DNA from: Acaryochloris marina S15
Lineage (GTDB): Bacteria; Cyanobacteriota; Cyanobacteriia; Thermosynechococcales; Thermosynechococcaceae
Assembly (NCBI RefSeq): GCF_018336915.1
Contig: NZ_CP064923.1
Coordinates: 3,630,001-3,662,000 of the forward strand
Direction: 5' to 3'
DNA length: 32,000 nucleotides
In this document: piece after piece, positions 11,544-13,493 of the stretch
Layout: every line of letters starts with the position of its first letter
Numbering within the stretch: position 1 is the stretch's first letter
Made by a program: the position numbers and the translations under genes
Notes under the pieces: generated by a model
Told to the model about the DNA's origin: nothing
Seen by the model: only the letters and a program-made list of their open reading frames with translations
The model's database searches: none

Positions 11544-13493
11544 ATGCCTCAGCCCATTAAGGTTTTTATTTCTTATTCCCATCAGGATGAAGGCTTACGC
11601 AATGAATTGGTGGGTCATCTAAGTGGATTAGTACAGTATGAAAAATTGATTGAAATTTGGCATGATCGCAAAATTCCTGCAGGGTCAAATTGGGAACAAA
11701 ACATAGACAGTCATTTGGAAGAAGCTGATATTATTCTTTTCCTGGTGAGTTCAGATTTTATCCGGTCCCCCTATTGCCAAGGCGTTGAAGTAAAACATGC
11801 TCTGAAATGCGATCAAGATAAGACAGTTCGCGCAATTCCCATTTTCGTACGTCCTAGCTTATATGAATCAACTCCCTTGCGGAGTCTTCAAGGATTACCG
11901 AGAAATGCTACCCCCGTTTCCTCGTCAGATCGGCAAACGCCAAGCTCTAGGGATGGTTTATGGCTAGAAGTTGTTCGTGAGATAGGTCAGATTGCCCGAG
12001 AGATTCAGGACCAAATCCTGTCAGCAAAAAGGGCACTCCTACGGGCAGATGGAATAGTAGCTTATGCACAAAAAGCTGAACTGTTTTATCAAGACGGCGA
12101 TATTTCTCCGGGAGAGCAAGTAAATCTCGATTTTATTGCTGAGAACTATCAACTTTCTGCTCTAGATATTGATGAGATATGGGCAAAGATTAAGGCGGAT
12201 TATAGCCAGCAACAACGTGCCCTTGAAACATATCGAGAAACGGTGCGAGCAGAAATAAAACATCGGGGTGGTTTGACTCCAGAGGCTCAATCGGTCCTAG
12301 GTGATTTAAGAGAGAACTTGGGTATTTCTGATGGTTTTGCTGGACAGATTGAACAAGAGGTTCTGGAAGAGCAGCAACGACTTGAAGAACAACGGCAGCG
12401 AGAGCTTGAACAAAGGCGTATAGAAGAGCATCAGCGACGAGAATTCGAACGAAAGCAATTAGAAGAACAACAGCTTGAACAAAAACGCCAGCACGAAGCA
12501 GAACAGCAGGCTGTACAAAAACGAAATATGGAGGAGCAAGTTCGCCAAGAACAAGCAACTAGACTAAAGGAGGAACAGGAGCAAAAACCACGGGAAGGAA
12601 CAACCAATAAGGTTCATGAGTTTGTGTTGGGCAGTGGTGATATACAGCTCCAAACGTTCTCATTTAAAGTGGTCTTGTTGGATGACAAAGGTAAGGTCAA
12701 GCAGCGCACCACTCAATCAGCTCAATTCTTTATGGAAGCATTAGCACCTAGTGTGGACCTAGAAATGGTAGCTATTCCAACTGGATCATATCTGATGGGC
12801 TCTCTGCATAGTGAAGGTTCTAGTCGCGAGCGCCCACAACATCGGGTGCAAGTCCCATCATTTTGTTTGGGTAAGTATCCAGTTACCCAAGCACAGTGGC
12901 ATTCTGTGGCTAAACTTGAGCAAGTCAAGATAAATTTAGATTCTGATCCTGCCCACTTTAAGGGAGACCAAAAACCTATTGAGCAAGTATCTTGGAATGA
13001 AGCAGTTGAATTTTGTGATCGTCTTTCTCGTAAAACAGGGAAAATATACCGTTTGCCCAGCGAAGCAGAGTGGGAATATGCTTGCCGAGCAGGAACAACT
13101 ACTGAGTTTCATTTCGGGAATCAACTCACGCGTAAATACGCAAACTGTGACGTTAAAGAGGTTGCAACTTTAATTGCAAATTTGCTTAGAATATCGACCT
13201 CGGATGTTGGCAGTTTTAACGTTGCAAATAGCTTTGGTCTATTTGATATGCATGGCAATGTTGGGGAATGGTGTCTAGATACCTTTCAAGAAAGCTATAA
13301 AAGTGCTCCAACTAATGGCTCAGCCTGGATTATTAAGAATGATAATCTTTCTCGTCGTCTGAGGCGTGGTGGCTCCTGGGCCTATAATCCGAGGGCTTGC
13401 CGCTCCGCTTCTCGCCGTAGCGATACTCCTGGCTTCCGTGACGACACTGTTGGTTTTCGAGTCGTTTGTTCAGCACCCAGGTCTCTTCAGTAG
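11544..13493 (+). CDS. TIR domain / coiled-coil / FGE-sulfatase (SUMF1-EgtB-like) domain fusion protein
   Basis: 649 aa. The N-terminus is IKVFISYSHQDEGLRNEL..ADIILFLVSSDFIRSPYCQGVEVKHAL..IPIFVRP (TIR). Residues ~270-345 are an EEQQRLEEQRQRELEQRRIEE... coiled coil. The C-terminal ~250 aa carry FGE-sulfatase motifs: GSYLMGS, RPQHRVQVPSFCLGKYPVTQAQW, VSWNEAVEFC, YRLPSEAEWEYACRAGT, FGLFDMHGNVGEWC, RGGSW and GFRVV. Confidence 0.9.
   Translation: MPQPIKVFISYSHQDEGLRNELVGHLSGLVQYEKLIEIWHDRKIPAGSNWEQNIDSHLEEADIILFLVSSDFIRSPYCQGVEVKHALKCDQDKTVRAIPIFVRPSLYESTPLRSLQGLPRNATPVSSSDRQTPSSRDGLWLEVVREIGQIAREIQDQILSAKRALLRADGIVAYAQKAELFYQDGDISPGEQVNLDFIAENYQLSALDIDEIWAKIKADYSQQQRALETYRETVRAEIKHRGGLTPEAQSVLGDLRENLGISDGFAGQIEQEVLEEQQRLEEQRQRELEQRRIEEHQRREFERKQLEEQQLEQKRQHEAEQQAVQKRNMEEQVRQEQATRLKEEQEQKPREGTTNKVHEFVLGSGDIQLQTFSFKVVLLDDKGKVKQRTTQSAQFFMEALAPSVDLEMVAIPTGSYLMGSLHSEGSSRERPQHRVQVPSFCLGKYPVTQAQWHSVAKLEQVKINLDSDPAHFKGDQKPIEQVSWNEAVEFCDRLSRKTGKIYRLPSEAEWEYACRAGTTTEFHFGNQLTRKYANCDVKEVATLIANLLRISTSDVGSFNVANSFGLFDMHGNVGEWCLDTFQESYKSAPTNGSAWIIKNDNLSRRLRRGGSWAYNPRACRSASRRSDTPGFRDDTVGFRVVCSAPRSLQ

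Follow-up and report, generated by a model that had tools for sequence, protein, structure and literature searches.

What does a cyanobacterium gain from joining a TIR domain, in one polypeptide, to a domain with the fold of the formylglycine-generating enzyme (FGE)? The question is raised by a gene lying at positions 11544-13493 of a 32,000-nucleotide stretch of the Acaryochloris marina S15 genome (contig NZ_CP064923.1, positions 3,630,001 to 3,662,000), which is the whole stretch of DNA analysed here and is called the window below. We refer to the gene as TIR-FGS, after its TIR and FGE-sulfatase (FGS) domains. The reading that we prefer, with a probability of roughly 0.6, is that its product is a cytoplasmic single-chain sensor-effector of the cyanobacterial "effector + FGS" class, in which the TIR domain would be triggered when a ligand is bound by a sensor that was formerly diversified by a diversity-generating retroelement (DGR).

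Domain architecture and the TIR domain

The layout of the gene and its protein is given below, all on the forward strand, with the evidence in brackets.

11544..13493, + strand: TIR-FGS gene, 649 amino acids (single uninterrupted open reading frame, ORF)
11553..11918, + strand: TIR domain, about residues 4-125 (Pfam, defence-library profile, structure model)
12045..12398, + strand: conserved helical module, residues 168-285 (family alignment, model)
12399..12659, + strand: E/Q/R/K-rich spacer (structure model, composition analysis)
12651..12746, + strand: all-beta N-terminal extension of the FGS domain, residues 370-401 (structure model)
12762..13466, + strand: FGE-sulfatase/FGS (C-type-lectin-fold) domain, residues 407-641 (Pfam, NCBIfam, PDB-chain alignment, Foldseek)
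13353..13463, + strand: segment equivalent to a DGR variable region, residues 604-640 (scaffold RGGSW...P..CRSA.R.......VGFRVV)

The start codon is sound, because 33 homologues have N-termini that match that of this protein. Both domains lie above their Pfam gathering scores, TIR_2 at residues 7-116 (E 4.9e-16, with the TIR family itself at E 1.9e-8) and FGE-sulfatase (PF03781) at residues 407-641 (E 3.1e-53). With both found in one ORF, the single-polypeptide architecture put forward in an earlier sequence-only reading of this DNA is real and its effector-spacer-sensor arrangement is supported; the two helical motifs and the EQR-rich stretch quoted there are present in the translation as written. 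No signal peptide or membrane helix was predicted anywhere in the protein (the 19-residue Kyte-Doolittle mean peaks at 1.09), and the whole of it should be cytoplasmic because no segment is hydrophobic enough to span a membrane.

In a library of defence proteins the best match of the N-terminal region was a ThsB-type TIR profile (PDLC00420, residues 6-156, E 6e-34), and SAVED-TIR and SpbK profiles matched as well. Glu82 (SPYCQGVEVKHAL; codon 11787-11789) aligns with the Glu of the C..EL motif in the RPS4 and Cat1 chains, which is the catalytic residue of TIR NADases. All 34 aligned family members have this Glu, and F8, S10, Y11, D15, W39, G47, and W50 are likewise invariant. The structure model of this domain has confidence values (pLDDT) mostly of at least 83, with one 10-residue block at 66. 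Passing the profile searches and retaining the catalytic Glu, the region is a TIR domain, as had been claimed, and it is plausible from these alignments that it would be competent to cleave NAD+. It shares its fold and the catalytic Glu with ThsB (from Thoeris), SpbK, TIR-SAVED, and Cat1, which are bacterial TIR NADase effectors or producers of a signal. It differs from those systems in that the sensor is a lectin-fold domain of the same chain and that no ThsA, cyclase, or CRISPR partner adjoins the gene; specifically for Thoeris, no ThsA effector of either the SIR2/SLOG or the Macro kind is found among the neighbours.

The C-terminal domain as a binding module

The FGE-sulfatase fold is common to enzymes such as FGE (SUMF1), PvdO, and EgtB, and an active FGE, a PvdO-like oxidoreductase, or an EgtB-like sulfoxide synthase with the TIR as a mere accessory would be one way to explain the protein. 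In its favour are the strong Pfam match, PvdO as the best neighbour in both PDB and NCBIfam, and Cys619, which occupies one of the two FGE cysteine positions. Against it, the alignment with the S. coelicolor FGE places RGGSWAYNPRAC (WAYNPRAC) over RGGSYLCHDSYC (YLCHDSYC), so that the first copper-binding Cys is replaced by Tyr614, at a hypervariable column that holds 13 residue types across the family, and the retained Cys619 is also part of the scaffold of TvpA, a non-enzymatic protein. Every curated equivalog model stays far under its cut-off, with 146 bits against 500 for PvdO (NF051459), 50 against 360 for EgtB, and 42 and 43 for OvoA and SenA (the cut-offs of the four models span 360-500). 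No DinB match was obtained in the TIR-FGS protein with Pfam or NCBIfam, and the genome encodes a separate 432-aa paralogue with a DinB-like N-terminus, likely the true EgtB. Furthermore, no sulfatase domain was present among the neighbours in the window or in eight related loci, and none of these nine neighbourhoods contains pyoverdine genes. We regard an active enzyme as very improbable.

By both sequence and fold the closest solved chains are PvdO and TvpA (Treponema denticola variable protein 1, PDB 2Y3C), ahead of the true FGEs; TvpA is matched at E 1.6e-19 with phmmer and at E 2e-11 with Foldseek, and FGE structures at about E 1e-9 with Foldseek. In the structure model the FGS domain is preceded by the beta extension of residues 370-401, a feature used by Kaur et al. 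to tie cyanobacterial FGS domains to TvpA (PMC7159879). TvpA has the same fold and the same RGGSW...C...GFR scaffold of its variable region, but is a surface lipoprotein with no effector domain and with an active DGR. Taken together, these comparisons show the C-terminal domain to be a predicted non-enzymatic binding module of the TvpA type, with a C-type-lectin (CLec) fold, and not a maturase. The sequence-only reading had favoured a sensor over a maturase. The non-enzymatic half of that idea stands, in that the FGE cysteine pair is incomplete, the DinB/iron module of EgtB has no counterpart, and no sulfatase gene adjoins here or in the related loci; what it missed is the nature of the domain as a variable lectin fold mutated by a DGR. 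Neither of the two outcomes that it had named as refuting it, a maturase complete in its catalytic residues and accompanied by sulfatase genes or an N-terminal region unmatched by TIR profiles, was observed.

A family of DGR targets

The TIR-FGS protein has the CLec/FGE fold and the C-terminal variable-region scaffold of DGR variable proteins, and its relatives are informative in this respect. Near-identical family members diverge sharply at residues 611-636, on the conserved scaffold listed above. In four subclades this segment has a mean pairwise identity of 0.42-0.48, whereas the TIR, the helical module, and the FGE core of the same proteins reach 0.68-0.95. Several related TIR-FGS loci from other genomes (labelled L001, L083, L085, L086, and L087) preserve parts of the corresponding cassette. 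At L083, bAvd and a reverse transcriptase (RT) with the DGR-typical IGNLTSQ motif come after the TIR-FGS gene; at L001 bAvd adjoins the TIR-FGS gene and the RT has been lost; and L087 combines bAvd with an RT fragment and another TIR-FGS gene. In L085, which belongs to the subclade nearest to the protein of the window, a downstream repeat is 89.6% identical to the 3' end of the gene, and 12 of the 14 mismatches between variable region (VR) and template repeat (TR) fall at template adenines, as do 11 of 17 in L086. Across 88 loci with this clade of FGS domains, bAvd was found in 13 and an RT in eight, and adenine-biased repeat pairs occur in about eight. The family is shown by these patterns to be a DGR-target family, in which residues ~611-636 are rewritten by the retroelement in the relatives.

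DGR cassettes adjoining TIR-FGS genes are often damaged. At L083 (12310-13800) the space expected for the template holds an insertion resembling a repeat element, and the RT frame is broken after YIRYV. An 83-residue fragment of the RT remains at L087 (10390-10683). Neither L083 nor L001 yielded a template repeat despite the presence of bAvd and/or RT, the space being filled by the repeat-element insertion. Clean templates lie directly 3' of the TIR-FGS genes of L085 (10172-10306) and L086 (10237-10364), where no bAvd or RT was seen within 8 kb upstream nor within about 4.9 kb and 8 kb downstream, respectively, which suggests that these templates served in trans or that the cassettes lost their enzyme. 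At a further locus, L002 (9756-10105), the frame of P0002, which at 54% identity is the closest homologue, continues for some 70 codons (~200 nt) beyond the point where the domain usually ends, in what looks like a frameshift loss of the normal stop codon.

A probable fossil template downstream of the gene

The genome of the strain (7.11 Mb in seven contigs, 99% complete) was searched for the corresponding machinery. Neither bAvd nor a DGR RT was found in it, its RTs comprising three of group II intron type, one related fragment, and another of a different, 498-aa type, and tblastn with the RT and bAvd of a relative gave nothing specific. When the 3' ends of the TIR-FGS gene and of all 17 paralogues were compared with the genome by BLASTN, paralogous coding copies appeared and no template. 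A nucleotide profile built from the template and variable repeats of the relatives only, and run with nhmmer over all 7.1 Mb, matched the 3' end of the TIR-FGS gene (E 6.8e-16), the 3' ends of FGS paralogues, and a single intergenic place:

13647..13751, + strand: decayed template-repeat-like copy of the variable region (nhmmer E 3.2e-6, whole genome)

This copy begins 154 nt past the TIR-FGS stop codon, the same position as that of the L085 and L086 templates, with which it aligns in register, and reads LRHGGQWINNPGHSCSAKHN...ISFRI. Its identity to the variable region of the gene is down to 54%, A being on the template side at 25 of the 52 mismatches although it makes up 29% of the bases there. 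The intergenic region resembles just the VR-equivalent part of the FGS domain. It could instead be a remnant of a gene end that was duplicated, but this is less likely, as the sequence upstream of 13647-13751 shows no resemblance to the rest of the domain. We read the sequence as a probable decayed template repeat, and the gene as a presumed former DGR target whose sensor surface and binding specificity are now frozen, the retroelement having been lost from the genome.

The 498-aa RT lies outside the window (C1:1534374-1535012), has a charged, coiled N-terminal region, and belongs to neither the group II intron nor the DGR type; it is possibly associated with defence.

FGS paralogues and their partner domains

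Both domain families are expanded in this genome, with 17 FGE-fold and 16 TIR_2 matches, and TIR-FGS is the only protein that combines them. Among the FGE-fold matches there are fourteen that have the beta extension or the domain type in common. Zinc-ribbon Ser/Thr kinases are the fusion partners in six of these, trypsin-like proteases bearing Tat-type signals in three, and a TIR in one, the gene described here. The other four are short forms, one with a Tat-type signal, one with an unassigned N-terminal region, one truncated at the 5' end, and one with a transposase-like N-terminal segment and a membrane helix. Two of the kinase fusions carry a membrane helix ahead of the FGS domain, so the domain appears to work on either side of the membrane. 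Among public proteins it follows TIR, caspase, CHAT, NACHT, EAD1, GUN4, PNP_UDP, or kinase domains and is always C-terminal. The combination of TIR and FGE-sulfatase amounts to dozens of 90% clusters, all of the named ones cyanobacterial.

The helical module and the spacer

Between the two domains the model predicts helices at residues 133-181, 189-201, 206-241, 246-259, and 263-340, followed by disorder up to residue 368. Residues 168-285 form one conserved module of about 115 aa, in which two helix-loop-helix units are joined by a long helix and which, modelled alone, reaches a pLDDT of 97. The two short helical repeats described in the sequence-only reading do exist as motifs, and belong to this larger unit. 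Within the genome it recurs in a caspase-module-TM-WD40 protein and a kinase-module-TM-FGS protein (TM, transmembrane segment; C1:2977114-2980257 and C5:3061-5400). In 1.84 billion representative proteins the module was found in 2,641 clusters, of which 1,176 reach E 1e-10 or better, and a single protein can contain as many as 19 tandem copies. In many cases it directly follows a caspase, TIR, or kinase, and it is typically placed between such an effector and a WD40, TPR, or FGS sensor; those examples that have names come from cyanobacteria. The module is covered by no Pfam model, Foldseek with the module model gave nothing significant among solved structures (the best match was an ENT domain, E 2.3, to which the sequence also gave a weak hint), and a single-sequence search with residues 160-300 retrieved the query alone. 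Two candidate likenesses were set aside, as neither was confirmed by the confident model: TerB, a weak match in five of 20 members (E 0.006-2e-4), and Tic110 (PDB 4BM5; E 8e-6 overall, best stretch E 0.003).

Further along, residues 286-340 are modelled as the continuation of one long helix and residues 341-368 as disordered. This EQR-rich stretch had been taken for a coiled coil that might drive oligomerisation. It shows no heptad register (hydrophobic residues occupy at most 31% of a or d positions in any frame), and contains 33 opposite-charge pairs at i/i+3-4 against 15.3 +/- 3.3 in shuffled sequences; among relatives its length varies from 8 to 170 aa. Given the lack of heptads, the excess of salt-bridge pairs, and the variable length, the spacer looks like a predicted ER/K single alpha-helix and not an oligomerising coiled coil, and assembly driven by such a coil has no support in its sequence.

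Genomic neighbourhood and distribution

The gene is surrounded by PurT, aspartate kinase, an ABC transporter, NUDIX, DUF423, Rbp, DUF2811, and a histidine kinase. Neither a NACHT/STAND NTPase nor a vWA/MoxR component is found in the TIR-FGS protein or in the ORFs scanned (window positions 813-8611 and 13498-22928). Immediately upstream there is another TIR gene, broken by an insertion sequence (IS):

8799..11249, + strand: second TIR gene, IS-split, with the IS at ~8857-10288 (ORF list, Pfam)

Its 5' end (MTRIFISHNWGDKTIADKIA...) is at 8799 and the remainder resumes beyond the IS, which has a transposase ORF (8938-10266) and terminal inverted repeats at 8850-8879 and 10266-10295. The C-terminal 200 aa of this upstream protein match no family and end in a hydrophobic helix. 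The idea that the two TIR genes are a conserved tandem pair was rejected, a stand-alone upstream TIR gene being present in none of the eight related loci (the additional gene of L087 is a TIR-FGS).

Eight genomes of the same genus yielded no TIR-FGS orthologue, and the region ~8534-13978 is without a counterpart beside either flank in the nearest of them, in a comparison where the empty site is not clean, the two flanks lying about 200 kb apart in those genomes. On both grounds the gene is accessory.

Function and alternative explanations

If the protein is a sensor-effector as we propose, the FGS surface would bind a ligand, in all likelihood some part of an invader, and this binding would relieve autoinhibition or cluster the protein. 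Head-to-tail assembly of the TIR domains could follow, giving the active form that hydrolyses or cyclises NAD+. As a result the infected cell would stop growing or die, or a nucleotide signal would be released. We favour defence over regulation because the sensor is hypervariable, the sister effectors are of the death type, and the distribution is accessory. A number of points weigh against this proposal. The variable loops of the structure model have a pLDDT below 50. A TIR with the conserved Glu could equally signal to an unlinked effector or be a mere scaffold. A ligand is known for no cyanobacterial FGS domain, and several of the FGS paralogues are periplasmic, with Tat signals or a membrane helix, which means that the domain is not tied to intracellular sensing. 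The gene sits among housekeeping genes and not in a defence island. Finally, the locus may be under relaxed selection, with its DGR dead and the adjacent TIR gene broken by the IS.

Some of these observations are shared with a different explanation, namely that the protein is regulatory and tunes physiology by signal transduction in place of acting as an immune or abortive-infection switch. Here the FGS domain would bind an endogenous or environmental ligand, and the TIR would signal to an unlinked receptor, in the manner of Thoeris, or act as an adaptor. Vallota-Eastman et al. have argued for regulatory tuning by cyanobacterial DGR targets (PMC7517822), most FGS paralogues of this genome are fused to Ser/Thr kinases, the neighbourhood contains no defence genes, and the best TIR match is of the signal-producing ThsB type. 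However, no ThsA-like partner adjoins the gene, and hypervariation of a sensor by a DGR better fits the recognition of non-self (PMC10907252). Sister architectures bear caspase, CHAT, and NACHT effectors of the death type, the gene is strain-specific within the genus, and its relatives adjoin toxin-antitoxin genes. We judge a regulatory role unlikely, though it is the alternative to which we give most weight. Less probable still is a decaying relic, a receptor that was left with no useful ligand after the loss of the retroelement and whose gene is becoming a pseudogene. Such an end would agree with the eroded template repeat, the genome devoid of RT and bAvd, the IS-split TIR gene next door, and the frequent damage to the DGR cassettes of relatives (RT interrupted in L083, a fragment in L087, lost in L001). 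Yet the frame of 649 codons is intact, and all the listed family-invariant residues are present, including E82, RGG (608-610), and the C619 scaffold. The template remnant has also decayed far more than the gene, which argues for purifying selection on the latter.

Compared with what is already known, the ligand-triggered sensor-effector that we propose is a further example of a described class, and both its architecture and the sensor idea have been published. Cyanobacterial TIR + FGS/CLec proteins were listed, and a sensor role for FGE-fold domains was proposed, in three computational studies between 2020 and 2024 (PMC7159879, PMC7517822, PMC10907252), in agreement with what the sequence-only reading had stated. 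TIR was named among the N-terminal partners of cyanobacterial DGR variable proteins (PMC7517822, PMC10907252), and CLec/FGE sensors were described as untested or only modelled in the 2024 paper (PMC10907252) and in another of 2026. Our literature search found no experimental study of TIR + FGS proteins, and the earlier statement that the combination had no experimental characterisation holds in that respect. With the cyanobacterial DGR variable proteins (Vallota-Eastman et al., 2020, PMC7517822; Dore et al., 2024, PMC10907252) the protein shares the C-terminal scaffold and a partner domain that is always N-terminal, and its relatives have bAvd, RT, and template repeats with mismatches at adenines. 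Unlike them, it is encoded in a genome without RT or bAvd and next to a probable decayed template, as a presumed former and not a current target. In addition, Acaryochloris appears to be unicellular, and the DGR RT clade of cyanobacteria has been reported as ~98% multicellular (PMC10907252). The FGS conflict systems of multicellular bacteria (Kaur, Burroughs, Iyer, and Aravind, 2020, PMC7159879) differ in having vWA, MoxR, VMAP, or STAND components, none of which accompanies TIR-FGS, a stand-alone protein of two parts.

Lectin-fold (FGS/CLec) sensors fused to death-type effectors have been proposed as a form of anticipatory immunity in bacteria. With neither an NTPase nor partner genes, TIR-FGS is about the simplest object in which this could be tested. 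TIR activity can be assayed readily, and the positions hypermutated in relatives mark out the sensor surface. The fossil template would show that such receptors can outlive their mutator, and bears on how often "adaptive" sensors turn innate. More tentatively, and as a possibility that we still hold to be doubtful, the protein could be a "hard-wired" former adaptive receptor, in which a useful variant was frozen after the loss of the DGR, in an apparently unicellular cyanobacterium outside the multicellular DGR lineages. If that is true, pairs of frozen and still-diversifying TIR-FGS proteins would provide a natural route to the ligands of this class of sensors, and the 115-aa helical module (~2,600 clusters) would be an undescribed transducer between effector and sensor.

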